DNA of 64,000 nucleotides from a phage, in the sequence record PV730299.1, one strand, 5' to 3'. Shown piece by piece: positions 3,428 through 19,654 of this stretch (its first letter is position 1; every line of letters begins with the position of its first letter). The notes beneath the pieces were generated by a model. That model had not been told where the DNA came from and made no database searches. It saw nothing but the letters and a program-made list of their open reading frames with translations. Position numbers and translations under genes: made by a program.

Positions 3428-3659
3428 CTTGGCCTCCTGACGGGAGTTCAATCCCGAGGTGTTCTGCCATGAGTTGTACCATCGCTGTCAGTTGATCTAT
3501 TTGCGCTGCCTGCGCTGCAATAGTTCTGTCCTTTTCTTCCTGATTTCGACGAGCGTTAAGTGCTGCCAAACCGGCAGCATTGTCTGTGCAGATGATAGCC
3601 CCAGGGCAAGAGCTACTTCTCATCATCGATGCATGCCCTTGTACTTTTACACCACGCAT
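3411..3659 (-). CDS. hypothetical protein, 82 aa
   Basis: ORF track; ATG preceded by GAGGA RBS and a GC hairpin. Confidence 0.5.
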   Translation of the reverse strand: MRGVKVQGHASMMRSSSCPGAIICTDNAAGLAALNARRNQEEKDRTIAAQAAQIDQLTAMVQLMAEHLGIELPSGGQDGNPN

Positions 3660-3708
3660 GATAATATCCTCTGTTAATGGCGGGGCAACCCCGCCTTGTT
3701 AATACTAC

Positions 3709-6700
3709 TTATGCCAGAGCAATCAAACGGAAATCTTTGAATGACGGCGGTGCTGTGCGGTTGCCTCTGACCAGCAGGCGGATCTTCAGGCCAACGAAAG
3801 GATTGGTGCTGTCTACAGTCTTGTCATACTCATATTCGAAGAATGTAGAACCGTCATTGACCAGAGGGGATGTCGGTGTCACAGTTTCCCATGCCACATC
3901 ATCCATCTCCTGGCCTGCGCGCAGCAGTTTAACTTGCACAGTCATTGAAGACTGAGAAGGTAGCATCGCGCCGAAGTATTGCTTCAGAGTGGTACAAGGG
4001 TTATCGAATCCGATATCCTTGGTCACATAGCTGAACACATCTTCAAACGGATCCACCCCGTAGGTGTTGAAGATGATAGTGAAATCATCACCGTCGATCA
4101 TTGGAGCCGTGTAGACATTACTCTCGTTGCGAGTCATGGTTGCACGAACCTGGAAGTCGCCCACCTGACGATAGATACCTTCCGTCGGCAGAGGCACGTC
4201 CGTATCGGATTCGAACTCAACCCAATCAGAGAATGAGTTGGAGGTCGCATCGCGATAGCGGTATTCCAGTTTCAACACAGATCCTTCCAGGGCTGAATTG
4301 GTGACGCTTGCGTAGAACATGTCTACCAAGTAGTTGCCTAGGAAAGAAGCCGCTTCACCACCAATCTGACCGTCGGAGTCGGCGTTGGAACTCAGAACGA
4401 ATTTGAACGTCGTGAACGTCGCATCAGTCACAGTGTGTTGAGCGTTCAGTTGCTCAGGAGTGAAACCGCAACCACCCGTCAACCCAGACAGAGTAACACT
4501 TTCACCCGCAGTCAGGCCATGCCCCGGAGCGTACACAGTAACAGTTGAAGAACCGTTGACACATTTCACGGTGTTCAGACCCAGAGGACGGATCTTCGGA
4601 CCGACTTTAGCATCGAAGGTCACGATGTTTGAACCAGCGGAGAAGTTGCAGCGATATACACGGAACTTCATATCGGCAGTCTGGTTTGGAGTCCAGGTCG
4701 TACCATTTGAAGATGTGAAGAACACGCCAGTGTACGGCTGTTTGGCAATGAACTCGTTGGTCAGCAAGTTCTTCTTGCCCATCTCTGCGATGTATGCGTT
4801 GTAGTCCTGAGTGTTGGCCAAGAGAACAATCGCGAACTCAGTCTGTGCCTGCAGATACACAGGATAATCAAACTTGAACATCGTTGGTACAGAAGAGTCT
4901 GTGGAGACGGAAACTTCTGATGGATTCAGAGTCTTACGAGTGACGACAGTCGTCGCTGGCAGACCATTGCTCATCTCGCGGATTTCCAGAGTGATCGGGA
5001 TATCACGGGACTTGGTAGAGAAGAAGACTTCGATGCCTTCGATGTATTCGCCGCCGATATTGGTGGCAACCATGAAGGACTGGGCGATAGGATCTTTCCA
5101 CTTCGCGACTTCAACCGTCTCTGTTTTGTTTTCCGTAGACTTGGTCGCAGTGTATCCCAGGACGCGGGTGTTGACATAAGTCTTCTGGATGCCCTGTTTC
5201 TTGCCGAAGGACTTATGAACAGCCTCAGCATTGGTCAGGGTATCATCAGCAGACTTGCTGTCCACAGGACTGTCAGTCAGACGGAAGACGTTGTCACCCG
5301 TGTTAAACTTGATAGTCTCGTTCTGAGGAACCGCAAACACACCTTTGATGTTGCCGTTGGCATCAGTGTTCAACGCACCACCCAGTACACCACCGTTTGG
5401 GGTACAGTACGCGCTCACATCACGTCCAGAGAAGAACGGATACACACGAGTGAACGGACGCAGCCCTGTGGCTTCGAAGTTGATGTTCGTTTTGCGCATG
5501 TATGGGATTACCTGCGTTTCAACGATCTGCTCGCCAGTCAGGGTAGTGGTCGTCTTGTCGGTGTACGTGTACGTGGTGACGTCACGGGTAGACACAGTCG
5601 TGCGGTAGCGATAGCCCCACCATACACCACCTGCACCATGCGGTTCCCACACACGCTCAGACACGGACACAGTACGCCATGTGCCATACACGGAACCTTC
5701 TTTGATCGCACCACGGGTGTTGATCGTTTCGTTGATCACACGTGGAGTAACATAGTAGTTCTCAAACCAGTAATCAGTAGTCGGGTTCAGCTTCAAGAAG
5801 CCTTCCCAGTTGAACACCGCATACGGGTTCACGTTGATGGTCGTGGTTGCATAGTCCTGGCGGACAGAGATCTCACGGGTGTAGTTGCATACAACCATGC
5901 CATCCTGAACGTTGTTCCAACCGACTGGCGTCAGGTCAATCGCGTTCTGCTGAACAAACGGACGCAGGCGACCATTGTCAGTGTCAATTGAACCCACCCA
6001 GTCTGCAGACAAATCGTCGATCAGACGGAAGTCTTTGAACGGGTCTGCTGCGATACCGTTCTTGAAGCGCGGGTTGCCAGTAATTGGATCGAACACCTGT
6101 TGTGACATCGCCGAGGATTCTAGCTGTGACAGTGAGGTGTAATATTCGACATTGGAGATACGGGTCTCCAGTTTACCGATATCGCGCATCGTGTAGCGGC
6201 GGTTGTCGATAGTACGAATCTGGATGTCGTCAATGTTGGCCGTGTAAGGCGGGATCATCAATTCATACAGGCGCATGCCGTTGTCTGGGATCGCAGGGGA
6301 AGCCAGGTTGTTGGAACTCACACCACGAGCAACGTTGAACACACCGTTGTCTGCCAGATACACAGCATCAATACGAGGCAGATAGTACTCTGCATCTAGG
6401 ATGATCGCGGTATTCGGGCGAACCATGTCCGTGTCCGACGCTCCGCTGGTGATCTTGGGACGGAAGTCCAGACTATCGGCCAACCCATACACAGTACCAG
6501 AACTGGATGAAACATAGTTCGGGATGTCTGGGTAGTTGATGGACGAATAGGAGTCCGCTGTGAAGAAATCACCAGAGCTGTGAGCGAAATACTGATACAC
6601 CACCGTGAACGTCCCTGAAATGGCTCCTGTGGACGATATGAGGTTAGAAAGGTAGTATGCAGCATCACGCTGACCGCCGTCCAGAGTGAAGTTAGAGGTG

Positions 6701-8547
6701 ACGTCAGCGCCATTTGCGTTCTTCACGCTGATCAGCTTGTAACCATCATGGTTCCCAAGTTGTGCGCTGGCTGCCGCAGTAAACGTCACAGTCTCGGTGA
6801 CTTCGGTAACAGTCTTGGTCTTGATCGTCGCTGTGGTGCGGACCATCAATGCCAACAGGTTGATAGACTGGTTGGCGTACCCCGCGCCCAGGGAAATCTG
6901 TAGTGCTGAACCAACCGGAGTACCAGCCAGGGACAGCCCCGAAGAGATATCAAACTGAGCTGCAGTGCCATCTGCTTTCGCTGCGGAGTACAGTGAAAAC
7001 TCAGGGCTGAAGCTGTAACCCAGAGGAGCGGAGATTGAGCCTGCACCAGCGGCGTTCAACGTGATCTTGTTTGACCGCAGGACAGTGTAGTTGATGTCGA
7101 TGGTGCCTGTAGGTGCTAGAGTCTTCACACCAAATACAGGCAGAGGGAAGATCAGGTCAATTGCTGAACTCTGACTGAACTGATTGGACTCCAGTTCGCA
7201 GGAGAACATCGTTGTACCGCTTTCTTCATAAGCGACTTTGGTCACCGTGCCCATGTCCCCAGTCACAACCAGGTCGCGCATATACAGACGGAATTCAGTA
7301 CCAGAGCGCTCTGCCGAAATCAGCAGGGCGGTGGCCTGCACATCGCTGGATGCGTTCAGGAACTTGTAGCGGATTGTGCGGGAGACAACCGGAACCCCTT
7401 TGGAGTTCTTGGACACCAGATAGTTGCCAGTCGAAACAGCCACAGGGTTGTTGTTCAGGATATCAGTGTCACGGGCTTTGTCAATTATGACCAGCTCTTC
7501 GCCGAGGTTTTCGATACGACGACCACGAACGTAGGAAATGCCTGGCTTCATAACCGCCACGAATTTGCTTTCGTCGCCACCTTCGGCCGGAGTGTATACG
7601 CCACCGTTGTTGTTCTCTTTCAGATGTTCGCGCAGGTCGATCTGGTGAGTAGAGACGTTGTAATCCCCGTTGGTCTCATAGGTACGCTGAGCCATGGCGT
7701 CTTCGAGGATGTTGTACGTTGACTGGGTGACCATGGACTGAATGCGACCGTCTTTCACCTTCGCCAGTTCAACGAAGTCGGCCACTTCTTCATCATAACC
7801 GTAGCGAGACAACACGAGGTCGACGCGCAGGCGATGCGCACCAGGGGCTTTAGAGTTCGGAGTACCCTGAGCATTGGAGAACAGACTTTCATCTTCTGCT
7901 TCGGTCACGATTGTTTCTGTCACTTTGAAGCCAATGCGGTGAGATGTAGAGTTCGATGCGTTGTCTACGATCAGAGTGGCTGGTTCAACATCCAGGAACA
8001 TACCACGAACGAAATAAACACCCTTTGTCATGCGAGCGACAATCGAACCGCCAACAGTATCGGCCACACCATAGCCGACACGGATGAAGTTATCGTTCAC
8101 GTCATAGGTGTTGAAGTATAGATTGTCACCAGCTTCGAAACCGTCTGAACTACCACTCTCAGTCATCTCTAAGATGGCATACATTGTATCCGGCTCAGCT
8201 GGATAACGTTCCAAGGACAGGACGCGTGCTTTCGCATTGTTGTCCTTGCCCAGAACATAGAGTTCGGAGATACCTTCCAGATCAGTGAACTCACTACCAC
8301 CAGCCAGAGTGAACTTCATGGACACAGCAGTATTGGTGATCGTTAGGCCGCCGGGGATAACCATTGAACCGTCTTTGAACAGATGGTTGCCAAGTTTCTC
8401 CAGTTGATCCTGGAAGATGGTCTGCATCTGGTTCAGTTCACGCGTCTGAACTTTGATAGGTGCCGGACGGAATAGGATGCGCGAAAAACGCTTCTCTGGA
8501 TTCCAGTCATCCCAATATGGGCGGCGATTGAGGTTCATTTCTTGCAT
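3709..8547 (-). CDS. large late structural protein, about 1612 aa, function unknown
   Basis: ORF track start 8595 is TTG; first in-frame ATG at 8547 has GGAG RBS and a CTAAATA-like motif about 35 nt upstream; Thr/Ser/Gly-rich composition. Confidence 0.7.
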   Translation of the reverse strand: MQEMNLNRRPYWDDWNPEKRFSRILFRPAPIKVQTRELNQMQTIFQDQLEKLGNHLFKDGSMVIPGGLTITNTAVSMKFTLAGGSEFTDLEGISELYVLGKDNNAKARVLSLERYPAEPDTMYAILEMTESGSSDGFEAGDNLYFNTYDVNDNFIRVGYGVADTVGGSIVARMTKGVYFVRGMFLDVEPATLIVDNASNSTSHRIGFKVTETIVTEAEDESLFSNAQGTPNSKAPGAHRLRVDLVLSRYGYDEEVADFVELAKVKDGRIQSMVTQSTYNILEDAMAQRTYETNGDYNVSTHQIDLREHLKENNNGGVYTPAEGGDESKFVAVMKPGISYVRGRRIENLGEELVIIDKARDTDILNNNPVAVSTGNYLVSKNSKGVPVVSRTIRYKFLNASSDVQATALLISAERSGTEFRLYMRDLVVTGDMGTVTKVAYEESGTTMFSCELESNQFSQSSAIDLIFPLPVFGVKTLAPTGTIDINYTVLRSNKITLNAAGAGSISAPLGYSFSPEFSLYSAAKADGTAAQFDISSGLSLAGTPVGSALQISLGAGYANQSINLLALMVRTTATIKTKTVTEVTETVTFTAAASAQLGNHDGYKLISVKNANGADVTSNFTLDGGQRDAAYYLSNLISSTGAISGTFTVVYQYFAHSSGDFFTADSYSSINYPDIPNYVSSSSGTVYGLADSLDFRPKITSGASDTDMVRPNTAIILDAEYYLPRIDAVYLADNGVFNVARGVSSNNLASPAIPDNGMRLYELMIPPYTANIDDIQIRTIDNRRYTMRDIGKLETRISNVEYYTSLSQLESSAMSQQVFDPITGNPRFKNGIAADPFKDFRLIDDLSADWVGSIDTDNGRLRPFVQQNAIDLTPVGWNNVQDGMVVCNYTREISVRQDYATTTINVNPYAVFNWEGFLKLNPTTDYWFENYYVTPRVINETINTRGAIKEGSVYGTWRTVSVSERVWEPHGAGGVWWGYRYRTTVSTRDVTTYTYTDKTTTTLTGEQIVETQVIPYMRKTNINFEATGLRPFTRVYPFFSGRDVSAYCTPNGGVLGGALNTDANGNIKGVFAVPQNETIKFNTGDNVFRLTDSPVDSKSADDTLTNAEAVHKSFGKKQGIQKTYVNTRVLGYTATKSTENKTETVEVAKWKDPIAQSFMVATNIGGEYIEGIEVFFSTKSRDIPITLEIREMSNGLPATTVVTRKTLNPSEVSVSTDSSVPTMFKFDYPVYLQAQTEFAIVLLANTQDYNAYIAEMGKKNLLTNEFIAKQPYTGVFFTSSNGTTWTPNQTADMKFRVYRCNFSAGSNIVTFDAKVGPKIRPLGLNTVKCVNGSSTVTVYAPGHGLTAGESVTLSGLTGGCGFTPEQLNAQHTVTDATFTTFKFVLSSNADSDGQIGGEAASFLGNYLVDMFYASVTNSALEGSVLKLEYRYRDATSNSFSDWVEFESDTDVPLPTEGIYRQVGDFQVRATMTRNESNVYTAPMIDGDDFTIIFNTYGVDPFEDVFSYVTKDIGFDNPCTTLKQYFGAMLPSQSSMTVQVKLLRAGQEMDDVAWETVTPTSPLVNDGSTFFEYEYDKTVDSTNPFVGLKIRLLVRGNRTAPPSFKDFRLIALA

Positions 8548-8581
8548 TTTGATGCTCCATCGATAGGTGCCATTATAGAGA

Positions 8582-8588
8582 TATTTAG
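8582..8588 (-). promoter_or_regulatory. late-promoter-like motif (ACTAAATA)
   Basis: About 35 nt upstream of ATG 8547. Confidence 0.45.
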
Positions 8589-8605
8589 TATACAACCAAC
8601 CGAGG

Positions 8606-8633
8606 AATAGAAAGAAATAAGCCCGAAGGGGCT
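8606..8633 (-). terminator. hairpin with U-tract on minus strand
   Basis: Stem AGCCC/GGGCT, loop GAAG, then TATTTCTTTC on minus strand. Confidence 0.35.
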
Positions 8634-8653
8634 TTGATTATCTTTCTGCGGTT

Positions 8654-8959
8654 ATGGTCATGGATTCGAGACCTCCGCATTCTTCAGGAACTATTGCAGG
8701 GGGTGCTGGTACAGCAAGAGAGTGGAGAACACAAACAAGACGAACCAATGGAATTACAGTAGTAGGTTCAGATGCTAGTGTTAAGGTACAGGGAACAGAC
8801 ATTGCTAACAGAGATAATGTATTAGCCACATACACACTTGGTTCAACCGATCCTTTCATGGTGAATGGTATTCAACTGGGTATGTTTAATATATCTGGCC
8901 AAGTAATTACTCTAACGGCAGTATCGGTTAGGGTAATACAAACAGTAAACTCTATATAA
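8654..8959 (+). CDS. possible small protein (101 aa) inside intergenic repeat copy 1; may be non-functional
   Basis: Only intact ORF among three homologous intergenic segments; copies 2 and 3 are frameshifted or truncated; no clear RBS. Confidence 0.25.
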   Translation: MVMDSRPPHSSGTIAGGAGTAREWRTQTRRTNGITVVGSDASVKVQGTDIANRDNVLATYTLGSTDPFMVNGIQLGMFNISGQVITLTAVSVRVIQTVNSI

Positions 8960-8970
8960 GAAATATTATT

Positions 8971-9004
8971 AATAAACAAAAGCTAACCCCGCAGAAGCGG
9001 GGTT
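8971..9004 (-). terminator. rho-independent terminator after the 733-aa tailspike gene
   Basis: 8-bp stem AACCCCGC/GCGGGGTT, loop AGAA, U-tracts on both strands. Confidence 0.65.
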
Positions 9005-9009
9005 ATGTT

Positions 9010-11211
9010 TTACTGAATAACAATACTACATTCAAGGTCTGAGATTACACCTGAATTGTTGTATGTCGTAATAGTCCATGATGTTGTTGATGTTTTATTA
9101 ACAACAACATACCTTCCAGTACCAGGCGAAGAAAAAGTGTAGCCTGCACGTGACATGTCAGTAGGGAAGTTGATGACCAAAACACCAACGGATGATTTAG
9201 TCGCGACACAACCCGTGGCAAGAGCAATCGCACCTGAAGAGTTGATATTAACTACGCACGGCGAACTTACCAGCTTAACCACACCAGAGTTGAGAGCATA
9301 TGTATCGTATACTGTGCCGATGCGGTTCATCCCAAGATAGGTCACCGCAGAAGAAGCCAATCCATCCCGGTTACGGAGCACGACAGACACACCAAGACCT
9401 GAGCAGTTAGTCACTTGCTGGTCAGAAACCATACCGGAAGTAGAACTGTATTGTTCAAGCACTGCGTCAACCGTGTTTGAACCGTTATAGCAGTTGAACG
9501 TTACATTTTCCAATCTGTTTCTTCGCACGCTTTTCCCGAAATCAGACCTAACATTACATATACGGTTATATTGTCCCGGTGTATTTATAATGACCATGCC
9601 GCCGCTGATAACGTTATCTAAGCAGTCTGTTAAAGAAATTTGATGGTCAAAGAAACCATAAGCACTTTTATAGTCACCGTTGTTTTGCATGAAGATCTGA
9701 ACATTTTCAAACCTGTTATTACTACATCCCTGAATTGCTAATACATGGTCGTTCCCATTAAAAGACCCATTAGCTACACTCGTGAACTTGCCACCTATAA
9801 CTTTACAGTTAGAGCACCCTCTAGAGAATTTAAGATTGTTATTACCGCCTACGGAGCCGTCAACGTTCCCCAAAACGGATGAATTCATAATACCCTCACA
9901 ATCTATGAATTTAAAATCCGTGGTCGGGAACCCAGTGCCATCTGCTGATGTGGCATGGAAGTTTATTAGTAGCCCGTTTTCTGCATATCCTTCTGACACA
10001 TAGCCACCTTTCACACCTAATATTTCCATGTTACCGCCAGCCCTTGATTGGCCTATAAATCTTGGAAATGTTATTTCAGGGTAAATTGCCCCTATTACTA
10101 CAAAATTGCCGTGGTTAGCTCCTTTGAAGCCTGTTCCGTCGAAGGTACAGCTGTTAGACCTTATTCCTTCCCTGCGTGAAGAGTCAGAGGCACCGTAAGA
10201 AGTATTTCCCATTCTCAATGGAGTTACCGATGTGCTAACGGTGTTGAACTTAATGCCTGAAACTTCCGTATAGTTACCGGTTAACTCAATCGCCCCTTTT
10301 GTGGTATCAAATGCTGAACCTGTCAAAGAGATCACAGCACCACCAATACCTATAATTCTTACACCGTCTGAAGAACTTATGACATTATTAGACAAAGAAA
10401 CTGGGATATCTATGTAGATGGTCTTGAAAGCCAATACTAGAGCGTTCATTAAGGAACTAACATCAGAACCAGAAGAAGTCCACTCTGAAATATAAGTTTC
10501 AATATGTCTGTTGTATTGCCTCAAAAACACAATTTCATCATCAACCACCACATGATCACGAGATAGTGATGAAATTACTCCGTTCACCTTGGGTTGCATC
10601 TCAAACAGTCCGTACTCAGTATTTATGAATGATGTCCCAGCAGGTATTGAGTCGCCAACATGAGCAACTTCAGACATGTTGAATGGATAAACGTTACCAC
10701 CAATCATTCTATTTCTTAAAAAATTAACGTCGCTTCTTACTACTGCATCCCCTACGCTAATCCATGCATAATGGCCTATACCACCAGTACTATCCGGGGT
10801 TGAACTAGCAGGTACAACTTTTGGAAGTTCTCCGCCCCATGAGTATTGCAATCCATTGTGGGTAAGTAACTCATTTCGAGTATTAACAGTAGAACCAGAA
10901 GTGAATGAACCAGGTAGTGTTACATATTCATTTCGCTCTGCTGCTAGTTCACCCAAATCAACAGTACCAGCTGAATGAACCAGGACTGCATGTTCATTGA
11001 GGCTTACAGCAGTAGTTCCTACAGGAAGTACAGGTAATGAGTAAGCACGTTGGGTAGACTTATCATAGATTACTTTGTAACCGCCTAAGTCTACACCTAC
11101 AGAAAAGTAGACTACTTCATTTTGCTTAACACCAAACTTACGGGCAATGGCTTGCTTATTGGTAAGAATACCAGTGGAGCCTTTACCACCTTGTGAGAAC
11201 ATTTCGTTCAT
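9010..11211 (-). CDS. tailspike protein, 733 aa, C-terminal region with beta-helix-like Gly/Asn/Ser-rich repeats
   Basis: N-terminal ~150-aa module (VVYFSVGVDLGGYKVIYDKSTQRAYSLP ... HSAGTVDLGELA ... NTRNELL) shared with three neighbouring genes; AAGAGG RBS. Confidence 0.8.
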   Translation of the reverse strand: MNEMFSQGGKGSTGILTNKQAIARKFGVKQNEVVYFSVGVDLGGYKVIYDKSTQRAYSLPVLPVGTTAVSLNEHAVLVHSAGTVDLGELAAERNEYVTLPGSFTSGSTVNTRNELLTHNGLQYSWGGELPKVVPASSTPDSTGGIGHYAWISVGDAVVRSDVNFLRNRMIGGNVYPFNMSEVAHVGDSIPAGTSFINTEYGLFEMQPKVNGVISSLSRDHVVVDDEIVFLRQYNRHIETYISEWTSSGSDVSSLMNALVLAFKTIYIDIPVSLSNNVISSSDGVRIIGIGGAVISLTGSAFDTTKGAIELTGNYTEVSGIKFNTVSTSVTPLRMGNTSYGASDSSRREGIRSNSCTFDGTGFKGANHGNFVVIGAIYPEITFPRFIGQSRAGGNMEILGVKGGYVSEGYAENGLLINFHATSADGTGFPTTDFKFIDCEGIMNSSVLGNVDGSVGGNNNLKFSRGCSNCKVIGGKFTSVANGSFNGNDHVLAIQGCSNNRFENVQIFMQNNGDYKSAYGFFDHQISLTDCLDNVISGGMVIINTPGQYNRICNVRSDFGKSVRRNRLENVTFNCYNGSNTVDAVLEQYSSTSGMVSDQQVTNCSGLGVSVVLRNRDGLASSAVTYLGMNRIGTVYDTYALNSGVVKLVSSPCVVNINSSGAIALATGCVATKSSVGVLVINFPTDMSRAGYTFSSPGTGRYVVVNKTSTTSWTITTYNNSGVISDLECSIVIQ

Positions 11212-11262
11212 AACGACCTCTTTGTTTTTCTAGTAAAGACCCTCCGAGGAGGGGGATTAATA

Positions 11263-13560
11263 TCACATAGTTAGCACACGTCTAACAATCAGAGAACCAG
11301 TAACGCCAGTAATAGACAGTCCTGTGGCAGTAAACCGACAGGACATATAACCAGTACCATCGCCAATATAGAGAGTTGTAGCATTTGTAACGTAATAGCT
11401 AATCTCATCTCTTGTGAATTTATATGGGGTTACTGGGTTATCCCCACTGGTATGAGTGATGTGGATTACCAACTCATTACAGTTTGCAATACCGGAAACT
11501 GTTATTGTAGAGGGTGCTGTTGCAACAGTAGTCCCCTCATAAGCAAGTGCTACTGGTTTAACACCACGTAAAAACTTAGGAGCACTCTGCACAGACCCGT
11601 AGATACCAACGTATGATACAGCACATACCTGCGACGGAGTTAAACCAGAACTGGCTTCTGTAGTTACCACATTAATTCGGTAAGCATTTATACGAGTAAT
11701 TTTACATACACCAAACCCAATGCCCGTATCGGCAAGTAATGCTGCTTCGTTGCTTATGGAGAAGGTTACATCAGAGTTATCAGGCATTGCTGCTGCAATT
11801 GTAGCTAGAGCAGAACCAGCAACCAACGATGCTGTATTAATGCCAAGCTCATCAAGAGAGTAGTAGCTAACCCAAAGGTTTTTTGGTACAGCACGTATTG
11901 CACTCCCCTCAGAATCTTCAGTAAAGATTACGGCATTAGTTGCAGAAGAACTACCGATATACTGTAAGAAAGACAGCTTACCTTCAAACCAAGACACTGC
12001 TTGTGGTTCATGTGAAGTAACTGTAATACCTCCAGCCAAAACGCCCATAGAGTTCCTACGGAACATTGCTCGCTCTATAACTTGACCAGTTAAGGAAACT
12101 TTAAAACAAGCCCAGTAATCATTCCATGTACCAGTAGAGGCAGCAGACCAAGAATTACCACAGGTAACGTACAAAAAACTTCCATCTGTAGTAATACCTT
12201 GTGGATACCCTGGCTTAACTAACTTACGGTCAATAGAGTTATCAGAGATAAAACCAGCGGTACGGCTAAGTACAGCAATACGAGTAATATTAGCTGTTGT
12301 ACCATCAGCATCCTGCAACTGGTAAATCAAATCTGTTTTACTGTCATAGCAGAAAGGAAAATCTTTCATAAAGCCAATACAGGCTACTTGGGAAGAAGTG
12401 CCTGCTGTGAAGTTAATTACAGTAATAGAACTGTTAGTAGCTCCCCCAATAAATACTTCACCAGACGAAAGAATACCAATACCTTGGCCGTGTGTACCAA
12501 ACGTACCTGGGAATGTTTCTTTGGCATTGGTAACTTTATTAATGCGGCTTAGGGTACAAGTGTAAGCACCACCAGAAGAAGTATCTTCTGTAATGTACCA
12601 ATAAGTGGCATCCTGGGCTAATCCTTGTGGATTAACTGATGCTACCATTACCTGGGAATAGTCTGGGGAATACTTAACAGGTATTGGTTTATAGATACTA
12701 TTCTTTAGAATCACTGATGTTTCTTCTAGTGTACCCAGCTCTTCTTGAACAGTCTTACCAGACTCAGTTCCAATAGTGGAAGCCCCTACATTTAAAGTGA
12801 GATTATCTTTAAACTCTTCTACAGAGCCTGGGACCGGTAAAAGGTCTACAATCACTGAACCGGGATTATAAGTCAGCTTACCATTGGCAACAGAATGGAT
12901 ATATACGTTAGAGGGTAATGTTGGTAATCCATATGCCTTCTGCTCACTAACAGAGTAAACAACCTTCTTACCATTGAGGTATTGAGTAGTATTAGAACTA
13001 AGGATTACTTCACTATCTTTAACGTTAGCAGTACGAGCGATTTCTTGAATACTTCGGTCAAACAACGGACTGATATTCGGTTGTTTAACAGACATTTCAG
13101 CGACTACCCAAACGCCTGCAGTCAGCGCAGTTTGTAAAGACACTTTCCCTGTCGTGCTGTCATAGGAATATTCAATTTCGGGTGTTTTGTACTCACCACC
13201 GATATAAAGAGATTGGACTCCATAAGATGTGTAATCAGGAGTGAACTCGGTTTCACCTCCTATAGCCTGAAACTTATAGATTCGAATCCCAGTTTTATAA
13301 TCTTCTGGAGACAGAATCTTATCAAACAGACAGAACACAACGTCACCTTTGGATAATGCGCGCCCGAGATTCAACGTATTTCCATCGATTTCGAAGTTGT
13401 CTAACGGAACTTGCACACCACCGTTGATTGTGACTATACCAGTGACAGGGTAGAAAGGGAGGGAGATAAACTTCTCTCCGCCCGTTGCTGTGTAAGTGTA
13501 TGGAATCTGGTGCGGAGCTGTTACGACCGCTCCAAAGATGCTCTCGACGTTTCTGGTCAT
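11263..13560 (-). CDS. tailspike protein, about 765 aa, N-terminal extension before the shared anchor module and a distinct C-terminal domain
   Basis: Shared module present internally; start set to ATG 13560 (ORF track 13575) to leave a normal leader after the CTAAATACCCC motif at 13597-13603. Confidence 0.75.
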   Translation of the reverse strand: MTRNVESIFGAVVTAPHQIPYTYTATGGEKFISLPFYPVTGIVTINGGVQVPLDNFEIDGNTLNLGRALSKGDVVFCLFDKILSPEDYKTGIRIYKFQAIGGETEFTPDYTSYGVQSLYIGGEYKTPEIEYSYDSTTGKVSLQTALTAGVWVVAEMSVKQPNISPLFDRSIQEIARTANVKDSEVILSSNTTQYLNGKKVVYSVSEQKAYGLPTLPSNVYIHSVANGKLTYNPGSVIVDLLPVPGSVEEFKDNLTLNVGASTIGTESGKTVQEELGTLEETSVILKNSIYKPIPVKYSPDYSQVMVASVNPQGLAQDATYWYITEDTSSGGAYTCTLSRINKVTNAKETFPGTFGTHGQGIGILSSGEVFIGGATNSSITVINFTAGTSSQVACIGFMKDFPFCYDSKTDLIYQLQDADGTTANITRIAVLSRTAGFISDNSIDRKLVKPGYPQGITTDGSFLYVTCGNSWSAASTGTWNDYWACFKVSLTGQVIERAMFRRNSMGVLAGGITVTSHEPQAVSWFEGKLSFLQYIGSSSATNAVIFTEDSEGSAIRAVPKNLWVSYYSLDELGINTASLVAGSALATIAAAMPDNSDVTFSISNEAALLADTGIGFGVCKITRINAYRINVVTTEASSGLTPSQVCAVSYVGIYGSVQSAPKFLRGVKPVALAYEGTTVATAPSTITVSGIANCNELVIHITHTSGDNPVTPYKFTRDEISYYVTNATTLYIGDGTGYMSCRFTATGLSITGVTGSLIVRRVLTM

Positions 13561-13596
13561 TTGAAGATACCCCATAGAGGATTTGCCAATATGGGG

Positions 13597-13603
13597 TATT
13601 TAG
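13597..13603 (-). promoter_or_regulatory. late-promoter-like motif CTAAATACCCC with inverted partner
   Basis: Upstream of ATG 13560; TACCCCATA / TATGGGGTA inverted repeat. Confidence 0.5.
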
Positions 13604-13863
13604 TCTGAACTAATAAAATTTATGAACAAAGGTATAACAAGACGAACCAATGGAACTATGGTAGTGGGTTCAGACGCTAGTGCAAAACGGACATTGCTAA
13701 CAGAGATAACGTATTAACCACACACTTGGTTCACATGGTAGATGGTATTCAGTTAGGTATGTTTATATATCCGGACAAGTAATCACCTTAACGACAGTGT
13801 CAGTTAGGGTGATGCAAACAGTGAACTCTATATAAGAAAAGCCCCCGAATTGGGGGCTTATTT
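13604..13863. repeat. inter-tailspike repeat segment, copy 2 (frameshifted)
   Basis: Same block with indels breaking the copy-1 frame; shares GGTATTTAG-CTGAACTAATAAA-TTTATGAACAAAGGTATAACAAGA with copy 3. Confidence 0.7.
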
Positions 13864-13866
13864 TTA
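13840..13866 (-). terminator. rho-independent terminator after the 768-aa tailspike gene
   Basis: Stem AGCCCCC/GGGGGCT, loop GAATT, T-run. Confidence 0.65.
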
Positions 13867-16170
13867 TACCACAGGTACTCCATTAACTCTAAATTCTTCT
13901 GTGCCGTTACTTGTACCGACGCCGCCGTTGGAAAACCGGTTTGGCGTAGCGGCATCGTAGTAGTTAGGTTCTACCTTGGCTACGCTGGTGCCGGTTGTCC
14001 TTGCGAAACGGTGCGCGTTAATGCAGCCGAAGAACTGGTTATTTCCCCACGGGAATATTGTTGTGGTATCCACATAGGTGTTGTACCACAACCCGTATGC
14101 AAAACCATAAATTTGATTCCCTCTTATATTTATGTTTTGCCCGTTTTGGTTTACCCGAATAGCGCAGTTTGATGTTGAGTCCGTAGAAGTACCATGGATT
14201 TCGTTGTTTTTAATATTTGCGCGAATTACGCCGCTAGACACAAATATTCCGTAACCGTCAGTCACGCGCTCAATACGACATCCGTCAATAGTATGCAACC
14301 GGAATAGTGTTGCGCCGCCTTTTGGCTCAAGAAAAATTCCAGCGCCAGTAGGTTCTATGCTTCTGTGCCCAATAACCATTACGTTAACCGATTCTGTCGC
14401 TATATGCACACCGTAGCCCGCGGAACCCTTATCAACACAGTTAGCTATTGTCAGCTTACCTGTACCTACAGAATCCTGAATTTTATACGCACCGTTATTA
14501 GCGTTGGCGAACCCTTCCACATAACAGTTGTTGATCATGTCTCCGTCCACTACGTCACCAAACAGAATACCAGCACCGATGTTGTCTTGATTTATACCAA
14601 AACCGCAATCGTACACGGAAACATTAGAGACTGTTGCTGGTTGGTATCGAACAGCTCCATCCAGGCCGCCGGACCGATATAAGCCCGTCCACCCTTTATC
14701 ACGGATGATAACATTGCTGACTTTTATGCCACCGCCGTATGTCTGATTGGAGTTGTAACCTATCGTAATTCCGTGACGAGCTTTAATATCTGAACGAGTC
14801 TTTGGCGTAAAATCTGTGGCGTCATACGTGAAACAGCGCCCATTGCTAATTAATATGTTTCTCCCAAAAGATAGAGAGTTTACGGAAATGCTCTGGCTGC
14901 CGTCAGAAAGACACGCAAAATTAGTTATACTGCATGATTTCGCCAACCCGGCGTTAGAAGTCCACTCAACCAAATCACCGCCAGAGGAGAATAGCGGGGA
15001 GCCGTCCCAATCATTTCGCCACCCAACAAAACCATCTATGGTCATGCTGTTGACTTCGAACCACATGACACCAGCGTTTTTCCATCCCTCACAACGGATA
15101 TCATTTAACGTAACTTCACGGCTACCTGCGATGTAAAAACCGTTTGCTTTATTTCTGTCCGTGGCTGTTAGCGAATAATCACCAAACGATTCCAGCCCTT
15201 CGATAATTATTCTGCGGGATGTGTCTTGTGGGAGTTCCACACCGTTTACGTTAGCTACAGTAGTCATCAGCCGCATTCCTTTAGCATCAATGTATTGTGG
15301 ATACGCTGGCGGTGATGGAATTAAGGCAGTTGTTTTATAAAAGACACCAACGGAACCGATACAGTGCTGCTGAGATGCCCATCTGTTAAGTGCCACGCCA
15401 TTATCAAATGATGGGTCATTAGGTATGCATCCACACTCTTCTGGTGTTAACCTGCCACGTTTAATGTTAATCCATCGACCAGCGCCAGTTACTGACGAAG
15501 GTTGAATAACCGAGAACCCATCATCGGCGGTTGTCGCAAGTGGGTGCCACTGAAAAATCCCACCGCCTACGTTATACCCAGCCAGGAAACTACGGACTAC
15601 CACTCTGTCTCCGTCAGAAAAAGGGGATAAATCGACTAAGGCTTTTAATGCCGCCACTGAAGGGAATGACCCTATTAGCGCTGCGCCTTGCTCAGATTTA
15701 AGGTCGTCGCGTAAATACGGGTCTGTCTGTGGTTTCCAATTAGCGTTTCCTACCGGGTCGGTTTCTGTAGAAATAGTTATGGGGAGGGAACCTAAGTAGG
15801 TGTAACCTATACCATTATGAAACAGTAACTCATTTCGAGTATTCACGACTAAACCGGCATCAAACGAGTCGGATAGGTTCACGAATTCTCTACGTGTAGC
15901 AGCCAGTTCACCTAAATCAACTGTGCCTGCGGAATGAACCAGGATTGCCTGTTCGTTCAGACTTATCGCAGTCGTTCCTGAAACAATACCTGAAGGAAGA
16001 GAATAAGCCCGTTGGGTAGACTCATCATAAATTACTTTAAATCCACTGAGATCAATATCAGAAGAGAAATAAACGACTTCGTCTTCTTTGACACCGAAAT
16101 TTCGAGCGATAGATTGTTTGTTAACTTCTATGGAAGTGGAGCCACGTGGTTGATTGAATTGAGAAATCAT
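13864..16170 (-). CDS. tailspike protein, 768 aa, beta-helix-like C-terminal domain
   Basis: N-terminal module highly similar to the 733-aa paralogue; CTAAATACCCC motif 30 nt upstream; hairpin terminator downstream. Confidence 0.8.
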   Translation of the reverse strand: MISQFNQPRGSTSIEVNKQSIARNFGVKEDEVVYFSSDIDLSGFKVIYDESTQRAYSLPSGIVSGTTAISLNEQAILVHSAGTVDLGELAATRREFVNLSDSFDAGLVVNTRNELLFHNGIGYTYLGSLPITISTETDPVGNANWKPQTDPYLRDDLKSEQGAALIGSFPSVAALKALVDLSPFSDGDRVVVRSFLAGYNVGGGIFQWHPLATTADDGFSVIQPSSVTGAGRWINIKRGRLTPEECGCIPNDPSFDNGVALNRWASQQHCIGSVGVFYKTTALIPSPPAYPQYIDAKGMRLMTTVANVNGVELPQDTSRRIIIEGLESFGDYSLTATDRNKANGFYIAGSREVTLNDIRCEGWKNAGVMWFEVNSMTIDGFVGWRNDWDGSPLFSSGGDLVEWTSNAGLAKSCSITNFACLSDGSQSISVNSLSFGRNILISNGRCFTYDATDFTPKTRSDIKARHGITIGYNSNQTYGGGIKVSNVIIRDKGWTGLYRSGGLDGAVRYQPATVSNVSVYDCGFGINQDNIGAGILFGDVVDGDMINNCYVEGFANANNGAYKIQDSVGTGKLTIANCVDKGSAGYGVHIATESVNVMVIGHRSIEPTGAGIFLEPKGGATLFRLHTIDGCRIERVTDGYGIFVSSGVIRANIKNNEIHGTSTDSTSNCAIRVNQNGQNINIRGNQIYGFAYGLWYNTYVDTTTIFPWGNNQFFGCINAHRFARTTGTSVAKVEPNYYDAATPNRFSNGGVGTSNGTEEFRVNGVPVV

Positions 16171-16203
16171 GATAATACCCCATAAAGGATGACCAATATG
16201 GGG

Positions 16204-16210
16204 TATTTAG
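16204..16210 (-). promoter_or_regulatory. late-promoter-like motif CTAAATACCCC with inverted partner
   Basis: 30 nt upstream of ATG 16170. Confidence 0.5.
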
Positions 16211-16466
16211 GCTGAACTAATAAATTTATGAACAAAGGTATAACAAGAACCCTGCCGAAGAGGGGGTTTGATTTTACTCTCCAAAATCACGATTACATGT
16301 GTAACCCCTAACAATTGTTGTGGATGGTATTCAGTTGGGTATGTTTAATATCTCAGGGCAAGTAATCACCATAACAGCAGTGTTAGTTAAGGTAATGCAA
16401 ACAGTAAACTCTATATAAAAAGTATCATTAGTAGGTAAAACTAACCCCGCCTGAGCGGGGTTGTTT
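16211..16466. repeat. inter-tailspike repeat segment, copy 3 (5' and 3' parts only)
   Basis: 3' part 16318-16430 could encode DGIQLGMFNISGQVITITAVLVKVMQTVNSI, matching the copy-1 C-terminus. Confidence 0.65.
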
Positions 16467-16468
16467 TT
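16443..16468 (-). terminator. rho-independent terminator after the 1047-aa tailspike gene
   Basis: Stem AACCCCGC/GCGGGGTT, loop CTGA, T-run overlapping stop codon. Confidence 0.65.
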
Positions 16469-19400
16469 ACATTGCGCTACCGTCTGCGTACTTCCATGCC
16501 TGAGCGTAAGCATCAAAGAAAGCAGGTTTCTTAGTATCAGTGTTATATATAACATGTCCATAACCGAGTAATGCCTTGTTCACCGCGTTTATTTGCGAAG
16601 TTGTTCCTGCTTTAATAATGCCTACATATCCTGCTGACTGGAGAACCCAGTTAGAGCCAGTCCAAGTAATCATTGTAGCTGAATCTGTTTGGTAGAATTT
16701 AAGACCTTCACGAAGTCTAGTGGGTCTGCCAGTAGATAAACCAACTACTGGATACCCATCTTCATCTTCCCACAATCCAGCTCCTGCACATCTTATGAAT
16801 TTAAGAAAGCTAGGGTCGTAGTATGAGAACCCTACAATTGCGGTAGCCGTGTAATCCTTCCACACCGCCGTGTTATCAAGACCCCGTACTTTTACATTCT
16901 GGACAGTAGCGCCGGATGCATTCAGTGGGTTCTGAGTGTTAACAGCATTACGACATGATATATCAATGTATGTGTATGTTGGAGCCATTTCACGAGTAAT
17001 GTTCTGGAACCCCTGATAATAGCAAGATTCTGACCTAAAACTTTCAGTTCGTATGCGGTCTGTTTTTGGATAGTAAACAGCTAACGCATTCACCGTCGCA
17101 AATGCCTCGTTTACATACGAACTTCCAACATCACTAACCCTATACGTGTTACGCCACTCTGCACCATTACTTATCCCTGCAACTGCCTCACGCATACGGA
17201 AATGGTTGTCAGCCATTTGTAATTCATCAACGTACCATGTTGCGTCTGGGTCCGCTGAGGCTTCATTTTGACCCGCAATAATAATACCTCTTGCATAAGT
17301 ACGTGCGCGGTTGTTATCAATACGGATATTTTCTATACTTTGGGATTTATGCAGCGTAACAAGACAGAATCCATATCCACCACGTAATGTGTTATGATGA
17401 AGATGTACTCGGTTTGTACCAATGAATTTAAAGCAAATTTCAACTGAAGTTTCAGCTGTTTCTGTGGTGTAGTCACGCATCACTGCCGTGTTGTTGTAGA
17501 CGAAAGCCTGACGTGTGGCACCCGTCCCGTCAGCTTGACTAGAACAATAAACCGCATGTCGATCAAGCGGAGCCCCTGAAACACCAAAGATACAACTGTC
17601 AACTGACACCAACTCACAATCAATTGGCACAGTGCCGTAACCGTATACACCCGCACTCCAGTCTTGAGACGCAAGTTGCTGGAAAACATTGTAATACTTA
17701 ACCCCATAACAAATATGAAGCTGGGCGGTAACTGTGTTTACACATGCGCTGATATTCCTCATCTCTGAGCTTTCATAATGTGCGTAAACGTTATTTACCG
17801 TAATCCCTACAACAGCCCGACCTACACCGCGAACTTTACCACCGTCTATCTTGACTTTAGTGGTTACACTTTCCACTCCCGTTCCGTCAAAAGTAAGAAT
17901 TTGATAATACGTGTTGGTATCCGTTGGAGTGAAGTTAATCCATCCGTCTGGGGTGGAGATTATTTTAATATCCTTTCCATTTAGAGATTTTCTAATTGGT
18001 GTTGTTATATTTTGCACACTATCAATAAGAACATCCGCATCGTTAGCAAGTGCGGTCTCTATAGCTGCCAGTAAAGATCCTGCTTCCGATGTCTTGACAA
18101 GCCCCCTTACTCCACCTATCAGAGAAAATCCATTATTTTTTAATAAATTACTACGCAAAGATGTGTCACCAACACTAACCCAAGCACCTAAATCAACGCC
18201 ACCAGAATTTTCTGGAGTTGAGCCAGCAGAAACTTCTTTAGGTAACACCCCATCCCAGCGATACTTACCATCAGCAAAGACAACCAGTTCGTTCTTAGTA
18301 TTAACAGTTACACCTGTTTCAAATGTCCCGGACAATGTGACGTACTCTTCACGAGATACAGCCAATTCCCCGAGATCTACAGAACCCGCTGAATGCACAA
18401 GTACAGCGGAAGGACTAAGACTGACAGCAGTAGTACCAGGGACAATATCAGCAGGCAAGGGATAAGCCCTTTGCGTCTCCTTGTCATAAATAACTTTATA
18501 CCCACTTAACGCAGCACCAACACTAAAATAAACGACCTCTGTATCTTTAACATTGGCTACACGAGCCACTTCCCGCAAAGTATAATCAATTTGATTATAG
18601 ATGTTTGGTGTTCCATTGATAATTACAACAACTTCATCTTCTGGTTCCAGTTCTTGTGCAAGAGAGATTTTACTGGTTAATGGATCGAATGTGAATCCCA
18701 GATTTTTATACTGGCGACTTCCGTTTATATCAATGGCCGGAACATCATCAACAACGACGTCCAACGTGATTTCGGTTTCACCGCCAATCGCTGAACCCCC
18801 ATTATAGACCCAGGTAATCGTAGAAGAACCAGAACCACCGACATTACCCAATTGAATAGGAGTATATTCAATCACCTGAAGTTCTGTGTTGGCTGGCAAA
18901 GAAGGACTGAAAGTGATTACATTCCCATCTAGTGAATATTTGGATTCCGCAAGACGTTTTCCGTCAGCATACACGTCCACAATTGTTGGTGGAGTATTGA
19001 GATTGACAGTACTTGTTTCAGACGCCAAAATTTTTGTAAAGATTTCACGACTGTAGACACGACCTTGGCCAAGACCGACGCCGGATGTAATAATCCAACC
19101 TTGTTCAGGTCCTGACCAAGTGAACGTTGCTGATACGTTATCAGTTGTTATAGCCATGTCTTCAGTGGAGCCATACAAATTATTCCCAGAAGGAGACACG
19201 GTCAATGGGTAAGTGGCAAATTTCCCATAAGCGTCACAAATAGTAACAGAATCCCCAACGCGCGTAGGGGAAGGGAGAACCACTGTAGATACCCCTGTGG
19301 TATTATTAATGAGATAGCCTCGCCCTCCAGTGAGCGTTGCCGTAGAGGCATGCGGAAGGACTTCCCAGCGGATACCACCGCCACCCAGCGGCAACCATCC

Positions 19401-19610
19401 ACCATTTTCATAGAAGCCCTCAAATTCGTCGGAGTCGGCATTGTAGCGAACGGAAGACGGGAGTCCTGCGCTGGCATTACCCTCGGGTAAAGTCAGGACA
19501 GCATCTGGTCCATGCTCAATCGTACCCGTGTTGAGGACACCAGCCAAAGTAGACTGCTCTTCAGCCGCCAGACCGAGAGGGAAAACAGGCTGTGTTGGTT
19601 TATTAGCCAT
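16467..19610 (-). CDS. tailspike protein, about 1047 aa, with ~350-aa N-terminal extension (likely baseplate attachment)
   Basis: Shared anchor module internal; start moved to ATG 19610 (MANKPTQ) because ORF-track ATG at 19640 lies 4 nt from the promoter motif. Confidence 0.75.
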   Translation of the reverse strand: MANKPTQPVFPLGLAAEEQSTLAGVLNTGTIEHGPDAVLTLPEGNASAGLPSSVRYNADSDEFEGFYENGGWLPLGGGGIRWEVLPHASTATLTGGRGYLINNTTGVSTVVLPSPTRVGDSVTICDAYGKFATYPLTVSPSGNNLYGSTEDMAITTDNVSATFTWSGPEQGWIITSGVGLGQGRVYSREIFTKILASETSTVNLNTPPTIVDVYADGKRLAESKYSLDGNVITFSPSLPANTELQVIEYTPIQLGNVGGSGSSTITWVYNGGSAIGGETEITLDVVVDDVPAIDINGSRQYKNLGFTFDPLTSKISLAQELEPEDEVVVIINGTPNIYNQIDYTLREVARVANVKDTEVVYFSVGAALSGYKVIYDKETQRAYPLPADIVPGTTAVSLSPSAVLVHSAGSVDLGELAVSREEYVTLSGTFETGVTVNTKNELVVFADGKYRWDGVLPKEVSAGSTPENSGGVDLGAWVSVGDTSLRSNLLKNNGFSLIGGVRGLVKTSEAGSLLAAIETALANDADVLIDSVQNITTPIRKSLNGKDIKIISTPDGWINFTPTDTNTYYQILTFDGTGVESVTTKVKIDGGKVRGVGRAVVGITVNNVYAHYESSEMRNISACVNTVTAQLHICYGVKYYNVFQQLASQDWSAGVYGYGTVPIDCELVSVDSCIFGVSGAPLDRHAVYCSSQADGTGATRQAFVYNNTAVMRDYTTETAETSVEICFKFIGTNRVHLHHNTLRGGYGFCLVTLHKSQSIENIRIDNNRARTYARGIIIAGQNEASADPDATWYVDELQMADNHFRMREAVAGISNGAEWRNTYRVSDVGSSYVNEAFATVNALAVYYPKTDRIRTESFRSESCYYQGFQNITREMAPTYTYIDISCRNAVNTQNPLNASGATVQNVKVRGLDNTAVWKDYTATAIVGFSYYDPSFLKFIRCAGAGLWEDEDGYPVVGLSTGRPTRLREGLKFYQTDSATMITWTGSNWVLQSAGYVGIIKAGTTSQINAVNKALLGYGHVIYNTDTKKPAFFDAYAQAWKYADGSAM

Positions 19611-19647
19611 TTCAAATACCCCTAAATGTGTTCGTTTCATCTAGGGG

Positions 19648-19654
19648 TATTTAG
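19648..19654 (-). promoter_or_regulatory. late-promoter-like motif CTAAATACCCC with inverted partner
   Basis: 34 nt upstream of ATG 19610. Confidence 0.5.

Follow-up and report, generated by a model that had tools for sequence, protein, structure and literature searches.

Fragments of a podophage gene beside three tailspike genes of an Agtrevirus-like phage and their probable part in cassette exchange

The subject of this report is a set of three homologous segments in the tailspike (TSP) gene cluster of sequence record PV730299.1, a stretch of 64,000 nucleotides (nt) of phage DNA that was analyzed as a whole and is referred to here as the window. One segment holds an open reading frame (ORF) of 101 amino acids (aa) on the plus strand, and an initial annotation had taken the three for either recombination scars or a decaying accessory gene that could mediate the exchange of tailspike cassettes. 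It is probable that the segments are non-coding relics of a podophage gene, each retaining part of its 3' end, and that they lie at the edges of tailspike cassettes that have been exchanged.

The Tailspike Cluster and Its Setting

By similarity and gene order, the source is an Agtrevirus-like member of the Ackermannviridae. Positions 3001-8963 share 98% identity with Escherichia phages A221 and LHE287, and the gene order is collinear with that annotated for A221, LHE287, PC3, SKML-39 and vB_CECAV_050, the cluster lying between VriC and the baseplate-wedge genes. All of the large genes of the region are on the minus strand, with transcription running in the order TSP4, TSP3, TSP2, TSP1 and VriC. 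In that order, these are:

16467..19640 as listed, start probably ATG 19610, minus strand: TSP4; variable receptor-binding part 16467-18134
13864..16170, minus strand: TSP3, 768 aa; variable receptor-binding part ~13864-15592
11263..13575, minus strand: TSP2, 770 aa; same direction as TSP1
9010..11211, minus strand: TSP1, 733 aa; variable receptor-binding part ~9010-10780
3709..8595 as listed, start probably ATG 8547, minus strand: VriC

The mechanically assigned starts of VriC (TTG 8595) and TSP4 (ATG 19640) are probably too long, the annotation of relatives pointing to ATG 8547 and ATG 19610; with these starts, the CTAAATA motifs of the cluster fall upstream of the genes and not inside them. 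As far as domain matches and identity profiles tell, the layout is that of branched tailspikes, in which a conserved N-terminal anchor is followed by a variable C-terminal part. Tail_spike_N (PF18668) was recognized in TSP1 (residues 90-155; expect value [E] 4e-22) and in TSP4 (residues 427-492; E 1e-22). The N-termini of the tailspikes are 90-96% identical to those of Agtrevirus relatives, and the C-terminal parts are unrelated.

Three Segments Derived from One Podophage Gene

The visible homology of the three segments that had been remarked upon in the initial annotation was borne out by self-comparison of the cluster: 8734-8963 matched 13636-13839 (77% over 230 nt; E 6e-49), 8861-9013 matched 16320-16470 (82% over 153 nt; E 7e-36), and 13567-13838 matched 16175-16421 (74% over 278 nt; E 5e-37). 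Along minus-strand transcription, the segments do lie downstream of three tailspike genes, as proposed, with segment 1 following TSP1, segment 2 following TSP3 and segment 3 following TSP4. Their placement between an upstream terminator and the next late promoter was likewise recovered, with hairpins at one edge of each and CTAAATA, a late-promoter-like motif, at the other. Segments 2 and 3 also have in common 55 nt of promoter-side flank at 94% identity (repeat family D6). No segment lies at the TSP2-TSP1 junction, a gap of 51 nt (11212-11262), and no fourth copy was found within the 64-kb window.

The core of each segment is a 3' fragment of a single gene, read on the plus strand:

8684..8959, plus strand: copy 1; orf14 nt 379-654 (the gene being listed at 627 nt), residues 118-208; frame open; the bulk of ORF 8654..8959
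13636..13838, plus strand: copy 2; gene nt ~429-657; non-coding
16320..16421, plus strand: copy 3; gene nt ~556-657 only, the last ~102 nt or 34 codons

The parent is a 208-aa gene of family phrog_17779, known as orf14 in phage Bp4 (EpBp4_0014; L003 5650-6276) and as gp17 in pSb-1. At the Gamaleyavirus locus, the order is gp66, gp63.1, a bidirectional terminator and a convergent orf14, the last placed tail-to-tail with the distal tailspike gene. Positions 8684-9004 of the window share 88-90% nt identity with the 3' half of this gene in the Gamaleyavirus phages Bp4, pSb-1, UE-S5a/b and nithesis. Copy 1 is 88.6% identical to Bp4 orf14 and 88% to that of UE-S5b, and a tblastn comparison gave 91% over residues 118-208. 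Copy 2 is 77% identical to Bp4 orf14 (E 1e-53) and, as the initial annotation had noted, frameshifted: relative to intact homologues it has suffered deletions of 10, 4, 11 and 1 nt that destroy the frame. Copy 3 (88% to Bp4; E 4e-32) was rightly described as a 3' end only, its translation, MDGIQLGMFNISGQVITITAVLVKVMQTVNSI, agreeing with the C-terminus of copy 1.

Full-length copies were confined to one family: 24 records cover at least 80% of the orf14 protein by tblastn, all of them Schitoviridae of ~70-76 kb. Matches of partial coverage occur in other podophages as well, and those in the Ackermannviridae all cover 38% of the protein or less. The idea of a decaying gene resident in the Ackermannviridae thus found no footing, no record of that family having a full-length copy. 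Among the G7C-like phages, PD205, EC1-UPM, ECBP1, ZQ2 and PE007 hold just the last ~100 nt of orf14, and the truncation of copy 3 falls within a few nt of that in PD205, EC1-UPM and ECBP1; Gamaleyavirus KKP 3715 has no orf14 fragment.

The orf14 product is predicted by structural modeling to adopt a TNF/C1q-like jelly roll, at moderate model confidence (predicted local distance difference test [pLDDT] score, 66) and with sequence identity of 5-18% to the jelly-roll proteins compared. In the Ithacavirus Shigella phage B2, the homologue is gp46, found at the same convergent position; the list of B2 virion proteins obtained by mass spectrometry (PMC11654681) does not include it, and a structural role for the parent gene is therefore unsupported, though not excluded. 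Annotations within the family vary, including 'hypothetical,' 'protease' and, for UE-S5b, 'tail needle knob,' and the homologues in Aeromonas phages are annotated as collagen-like-domain proteins. Across the homologues P0001-P0038, the C-terminal half is far more conserved than the N-terminal half.

Coding Status of the 101-aa Open Reading Frame

The statement that copy 1 contains an intact 101-aa ORF was correct in so far as the frame is open from an ATG start through 8654..8959 on the plus strand, and failed in so far as the gene is truncated, with only residues 118-208 of a 208-aa protein remaining. The ORF consists of the C-terminal 91 residues of the parent preceded by ten unrelated codons, and it matches phrog_17779 (E 8.2e-49) over profile positions 119-207 of 208 only; neither the ORF nor its full-length homologue matched any Pfam family. 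Full-length members of the family have ~201-225 aa, and the N-terminal half (FLLDL…W.G…NYF.LP…) is missing in the window: the first 117 residues of the parent are absent from the ORF, and ~5 of ~10 predicted jelly-roll strands are retained.

The ten foreign codons have a source of their own. They and the ATG are provided by the antisense strand of the end of an older TSP1 allele, of which two vestiges were recognized:

8638..8683, minus strand: vestige of the older TSP1 end, its last ~13 codons and stop (…GGLESMTITAER*)
8619..8634, both strands scanned: terminator hairpin (AAGCCCGAAGGGGCTT) of the older TSP1 allele

TSP1 of vB_CECAV_050 ends with …NGGGLEFMTITAER*, its nucleotide match to the window extends to 8678, and the hairpin is conserved there directly after the TSP1 stop. 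Positions 8619-8683 have the appearance of a layered fossil, in which the end of an older TSP1 and its own terminator remained after the current TSP1 module had been joined.

No Shine-Dalgarno sequence precedes ATG 8654, where the sequence is CTTTCTGCGGTT; in functional genes (Bp4, pSb-1, nithesis and B2), GAGG or AAGGAGG stands 5-7 nt before the ATG. Neither a sigma-70-like nor a CTAAATA motif was found upstream of the ORF on the plus strand. The ATG-to-stop frame is broken in four of five related phages: A221 and PC3 by a 1-nt deletion, SKML-39 by deletions of 1 and 11 nt, and fGh-Ecl02 by a TGA codon and deletions. In the fifth, LHE287, a 189-nt insertion and a 1-nt deletion are present and the stop is lost, with a different ORF of 112 aa entering the C-terminal frame from another ATG. 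The exact 101-aa product recurs on one further public contig of 3.1 kb, in the same context. Taken together, the sequence features suggest that the ORF is not expressed as a functional protein. With a truncated copy, an incidental ATG, no ribosome-binding site and the frame broken in four of five relatives, the notion of a decaying resident gene was not supported.

Copies and Junctions in Related Phages

Five other Ackermannviridae (A221, PC3, SKML-39, LHE287 and fGh-Ecl02) have a copy at the position of segment 1. The left junction at orf14 nt 379 is common to the window, A221, PC3, SKML-39 and LHE287, with an extra 19-nt deletion there in fGh-Ecl02, and that at orf14 nt 429 (…ATGAACAAAGGTATAACAAG|) is common to segment 2 of the window and YX22. 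A221 carries segment 1 only. Two further placements were seen, a 44-nt fragment between TSP1 and TSP2 in PC3 (L009 11541-11860) and two copies at inter-tailspike positions in YX22 (L011 4121-4231 and 9001-9229); with these, the fragment is found across the Aglimvirinae after any of the four spikes. The three copies of the window are the most seen in one genome.

All 16 copies examined have kept the last ~100 nt. The truncation points of at least three independent lineages, which differ in their left flanks, fall within ~5 nt of a single point at orf14 nt ~552-556 (window 16317-16320; L005 3995; L015 3001; L011 4121). In the PD205/EC1-UPM type, the sequence between the orf14 leader hairpin (CCAGACATAGTGTCTGG) and nt ~552-556 has been lost by internal deletion; for the YX22 copy YX22a, a deletion between microhomologies (ATTC and TTTC) accounts for the truncation. 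The retention and the truncation cluster could reflect either ascertainment or a real hotspot.

Modules, Terminators and the Origin of the Cassettes

The fragments would each close a module of one form, present three times in the window: N-terminal repeat, variable part, terminator, orf14 fragment and next late promoter. The parts of the modules are:

TSP1 module: 5' arm 10865-11160 (minus strand), variable part ~9010-10780, terminator 8984-9005, fragment 8684-8959
TSP3 module: 5' arm 15824-16122 (minus strand), variable part ~13864-15592, terminator 13839-13859, fragment 13636-13838
TSP4 module: 5' arm 18366-18552 (minus strand), variable part 16467-18134, terminator 16442-16463, fragment 16320-16421

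The terminators, taken as a hairpin followed by a run of T and scanned for on both strands, are of two types:

8984..9005, bidirectional: type A (AACCCCGC…GCGGGGTT), after TSP1; common to TSP1 (minus strand) and the orf14 fragment (plus strand)
13839..13859, bidirectional: type B (AAGCCCCC…GGGGGCTT), after TSP3; within the 87% match to PDP351P4 described below
16442..16463, both strands: type A, imported with the TSP4 cassette

Type A also occurs behind the full-length gene in UE-S5b, whose match to the window extends to 9004. At the type B position, a short hairpin rich in G+C (AAGGCCC…GGGCCTT) is seen in Bp4 and PD205, without the A-rich spacer of type A.

The 5' arm is the conserved N-terminal coding block (the TD1/Tail_spike_N region), which is mutually homologous in TSP1, TSP3 and TSP4; the blocks of TSP3 and TSP1 are 70% identical (E 4e-32). 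Each resembles the N-terminus of a Gamaleyavirus spike at the gene-63.1 position, that of TSP1 with 86% and that of TSP3 with 73% nt identity to Bp4, and that of TSP4, over 18138-18503, with 76% to PD205. Overall, identity to the flanking sequences of gene 63.1 in Gamaleyavirus is 66-86% for the 5' arms and 77-89% for the 3' arms. The block and the trailing fragment occur with the same three genes and no others. TSP2, which has neither, forms a two-gene unit with TSP1; positions 10782-13060 align to PD205 (84% identity; 2290 nt) where its gp66-like gene ends and its gp63.1-like gene begins, and on this alignment the TSP2-TSP1 pair is syntenic with gp66-gp63.1 of the G7C-like phages.

For the variable parts, relatives were seen in other families. 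The receptor-binding part of TSP4 and its terminator match, from 16443 on, the KKP 3715 spike that occupies the gene-63.1 position (84% nt identity), and that of TSP3 with its terminator (13834-15592) is 87% identical to Kayfunavirus PDP351P4; that of TSP1 shows 78% nt identity to an AV101 tailspike. Two T7-like Kayfunavirus genomes (PDP351P4 and PDP351P3) match 13834-15592 at 84-87% nt identity, and a third phage family is thereby tied to this pool of cassettes.

Phage vB_CECAV_050 has the gene order and promoters of the window, other receptor-binding parts, and none of the three fragments. Its positions 9383-9742 are 95.6% identical to 15917-16277 of the window, its TSP4 stop lying at 9739, so that the hairpin which is resident at this site adjoins the TSP4 stop in vB_CECAV_050. 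This indicates that 16278-16466 (filler, fragment and second terminator) arrived in the window with the current variable part of TSP4. The window consequently has tandem terminators behind TSP4, the proximal (16442-16463) imported with the receptor-binding part and the distal resident:

16242..16273: resident hairpin (AACCCTGCCGAAGAGGGGGTT), repeat family D3

Substitution Pattern and Breakpoints

Comparison of the window with A221 revealed three zones. From 8000 to 8698, a stretch that takes in the junction and the initial ~15-30 nt of the fragment, the two are ~99% identical; over 8699-8963, up to the stop, 28 of 275 sites differ (~10%); and beyond the stop of the fragment, the terminator and the variable part of TSP1 are unrelated. 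The fall in identity from ~99% to ~90% was placed at 8699-8716, ~15-30 nt inside the fragment with the left junction unchanged, by comparison of these two genomes and not by a formal breakpoint test.

Within the divergent zone, 23 of the 28 differences are at third codon positions of the orf14 frame (P 1.5e-7), corresponding to a synonymous rate (dS) of 0.45, a nonsynonymous rate (dN) of 0.025 and a dN/dS of ~0.06. The same bias was seen among the copies of the window (segments 1 and 2, 18/27, P 4e-4; segments 1 and 3, 10/15, P 0.0085; segments 2 and 3, 8/12, P 0.019) and in every pair of Ackermannviridae copies (dN/dS, 0.05-0.13), and likewise between segment 2 and the YX22 copy. The flanking VriC is ~99% identical between the window and A221, and the dS of the fragment is ~10-fold that of this adjacent gene.

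The third-position bias rules out drift of a dead spacer in place, and the ~10-fold excess of dS over adjacent VriC is not explained by local purifying selection. Third-position divergence beside near-identical flanks points instead to repeated replacement from functional alleles, with a crossover inside the fragment. As the junctions are common to several phages and the interiors are divergent, the junctions would be old and the interiors newer. Moreover, the three truncation points (nt 379, 429 and 556) and the two types of terminator, both of which are found in podophages, suggest separate captures and not intragenomic duplication.

Proposed Exchange and Its Alternatives

These observations are accommodated by a model in which receptor-binding cassettes move between the tailspike loci of Gamaleyavirus and Agtrevirus. 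The exchanged DNA would begin in the N-terminal tailspike domain (the 5' arm), take in the variable beta-helix part and the terminator, and end in the neighboring orf14 (the 3' arm). One crossover would take place inside the fragment and the other, by inference, in the N-terminal block, and the interior of the fragments would be overwritten from G7C-like phages or from phages that had recently been given G7C-like DNA. On this pattern, the fragments have probably served as 3' homology arms for cassette swaps, and exchange with co-infecting G7C-like phages, as well as among the three positions, may be ongoing with the fragments as the downstream arm. The part of the initial annotation which saw recombination scars that could mediate cassette exchange is upheld in this form, as foreign-gene fragments at the 3' edges of cassettes overwritten from functional donor alleles.

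Several points weigh against the model. For none of the three modules was a donor found whose identity exceeds 95% throughout the fragment, the terminator and the receptor-binding part. Fragments matched at 90% at most and cassettes at 84% (KKP 3715), 87% (Kayfunavirus) and 78% (AV101), and with such matches no single transfer event has been reconstructed. Both the Kayfunavirus relative of the TSP3 part and KKP 3715 lack an adjoining fragment, such that the co-transfer of cassette and fragment is inferred rather than observed. Finally, selection on the C-terminal frame within Agtrevirus phages would likewise produce a third-position bias; it is excluded on indirect evidence only, namely the broken frames and the discordant divergence of the flanks.

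An alternative is that the 101-aa ORF is a real accessory gene, with a role in adsorption or tailspike assembly as, for example, a truncated TNF-like knob, and that copies 2 and 3 are its decayed paralogues. The frame is indeed open over 101 codons and ends at a bidirectional terminator, its changes relative to all homologues are mostly synonymous (dN/dS, 0.04-0.11), the identical ORF was called by a gene caller on the other public contig, and LHE287 and YX22 also keep an open C-terminal frame. Yet the N-terminal 117 residues and about half of the predicted jelly-roll strands are gone, the first ten codons come from the antisense strand of a former TSP1 3' end, the signals for plus-strand expression named above are missing, and the equivalent ORF is broken by independent lesions in A221, PC3, SKML-39 and fGh-Ecl02 and frameshifted with loss of its stop in LHE287. 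The low dN/dS stands next to a dS ~10-fold that of a 99%-identical flank, a combination indicative of imported divergence rather than local selection, and a functional accessory gene is considered highly improbable. Duplication of an ordinary intergenic spacer with the TSP modules in the Agtrevirus lineage, followed by neutral drift and with no repeated import, would account for three copies at equivalent positions after genes that share the N-terminal repeat, and for the 55-nt flank common to segments 2 and 3. It is nevertheless judged quite unlikely: the third-position bias among the copies of the window (18/27, 10/15 and 8/12) is unlike neutral drift, the truncation points differ (nt 379, 429 and 556), relatives with the same gene order are without copies (all are absent from vB_CECAV_050, and A221 has segment 1 only), and the terminator types vary between copies and also occur in podophages.

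An explanation of another kind would make the last ~100 nt and the terminator a selected cis element, as a homing or meganuclease target or a Holliday-junction barrier, or else a small mobile element. The presence of the last ~100 nt in all 16 copies and the truncation of at least three lineages within ~5 nt of one point would suit it, and stem-loop-bounded swaps together with such mechanisms have been proposed for G7C-like phages (Babenko et al., 2019; bioRxiv 10.1101/542787). However, the segments have neither terminal inverted repeats nor target-site duplications, their only inverted repeats being the terminator hairpins and the promoter-leader hairpin; no nuclease gene is adjacent; no match at the Rfam gathering threshold was obtained over 8400-16700, where two terminator hits scored 20.8 against 57 bits and 20.5 against 114; and no copy of the fragment was found in 5,426 complete Escherichia coli genomes. 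The truncation of YX22a is accounted for by the microhomology deletion, and the retention of the last 100 nt can be a matter of ascertainment, since copies without it would be both invisible and unable to recombine. This explanation is accordingly rated as very unlikely. A miniature inverted-repeat transposable element (MITE) or other mobile element was ruled out in its own right, the copies occurring beside tailspike genes only and without terminal inverted repeats; a prophage origin was rejected on the same set of E. coli genomes, and a known structured RNA on the sub-threshold Rfam hits to the terminator. A bolder version of the exchange model, rather unlikely on present evidence, would have the 3' half of orf14, and especially its last ~100 nt, as a selected cross-family docking element that together with the TD1 block allows a two-arm, high-frequency trade between Agtrevirus and Gamaleyavirus; in its radical form, the truncated ORFs would be expressed and functional. 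The reading as non-coding fossils at the edges of exchanged cassettes is retained as the favored one.

Relation to Known Systems

Short conserved crossover points between variable modules are represented by the boundary sequences of lambdoid phages and the promoter stem-loops of T4-like phages, and dead gene ends are left in phages by illegitimate joins at module junctions. The proposed arm of the window differs from the lambdoid and T4-like boundaries in being the highly conserved coding 3' half of a gene from another family, and in a substitution pattern that would record repeated refreshment from live alleles. Unlike the Sf6 tail needle knob and the jelly-roll trimers of TNF, C1q and BclA, to which identity is 5-18% with a model pLDDT of 66, the window ORF holds half a domain. 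The Gamaleyavirus locus is closer, with a two-spike operon, a bidirectional terminator and a convergent small gene in the order and orientation of the window, and nt identity to it amounts to 84-89% on either side of the variable spike part; the difference is that the window, which derives from a myovirus in a different family, has the small gene as a 3' fragment only, present three times.

The TD1/N-terminal block of TSP1, TSP3 and TSP4 has previously been proposed as a recombination site, and the similarity of Ackermannviridae spikes to G7C-like spikes has been noted (Sørensen et al., 2021, PMC8432352; Pas et al., 2023, PMC10791037). The N-terminal repeats of the window are that block, in the same three genes, where a conserved block beside a variable module permits exchange. 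Those studies cover the 5' site and flanking conserved genes only, and the segments of the window would be the missing 3' arm. With G7C-like phages, spike swaps were found to be bounded by a conserved terminator-like stem-loop, and a dedicated mechanism was speculated upon (Babenko et al., 2019; bioRxiv 10.1101/542787). There, too, a conserved terminator region is the distal limit of exchanged C-terminal spike modules; however, that stem-loop lies between genes 63.1 and 66, and the element of the window is a fragment of a coding gene beyond the terminator, in another phage family. Text searches of PMC8432352, PMC10791037, bioRxiv 10.1101/542787 and PMC11414711 returned no mention of an orf14 fragment or a 3' arm in Agtrevirus. 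As mosaic-boundary remnants and homology arms, the segments are a new case of something already known in kind, and it is the 3' side that is newly filled in.

What the segments represent is an evolutionary footprint and not a new gene, kind of element or mechanism. The footprint is concrete and datable, and concerns gene flow between unrelated virulent families (the Schitoviridae podophages and the Ackermannviridae myophages) at a host-range locus. As a 3' counterpart to the proposed 5' (TD1) site, the fragments would explain how receptor-binding modules are swapped cleanly with neighboring genes untouched, and they suggest natural homology arms for the engineering of tailspike swaps in Agtrevirus and G7C-like phages. 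For annotation they serve as a warning, small plus-strand ORFs in inter-tailspike gaps being gene fragments.

Promoter Motifs and Leader Hairpins

A CTAAATA motif borders each segment on its promoter side, 28-41 nt before the start of the next gene:

8582..8588, minus strand: CTAAATA, before VriC
13597-13603, minus strand: CTAAATA, before TSP2
16204-16210, minus strand: CTAAATA, before TSP3

It also precedes TSP4 and other late genes of the window. By its resemblance to TATAAATA of T4 and its position before late genes, CTAAATA appears to be a late promoter; a search of the available literature for CTAAATA as a published late promoter of Ackermannviridae returned nothing relevant, and the assignment thus relies on the local motif and its position. 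A perfect inverted repeat of 9-11 nt (ATACCCC(A/T)A, 12-17 nt, T(A/T)GGGGTAT) was observed at 13567-13599, 16174-16207 and 19616-19650, where it overlaps the late-promoter-like motif CTAAATACCCC and stops just short of the TSP2, TSP3 and TSP4 start codons; VriC and TSP1 have no such repeat before them. From its placement, this repeat could form a leader hairpin that masks the ribosome-binding site, or could be an element that acts at the level of DNA.

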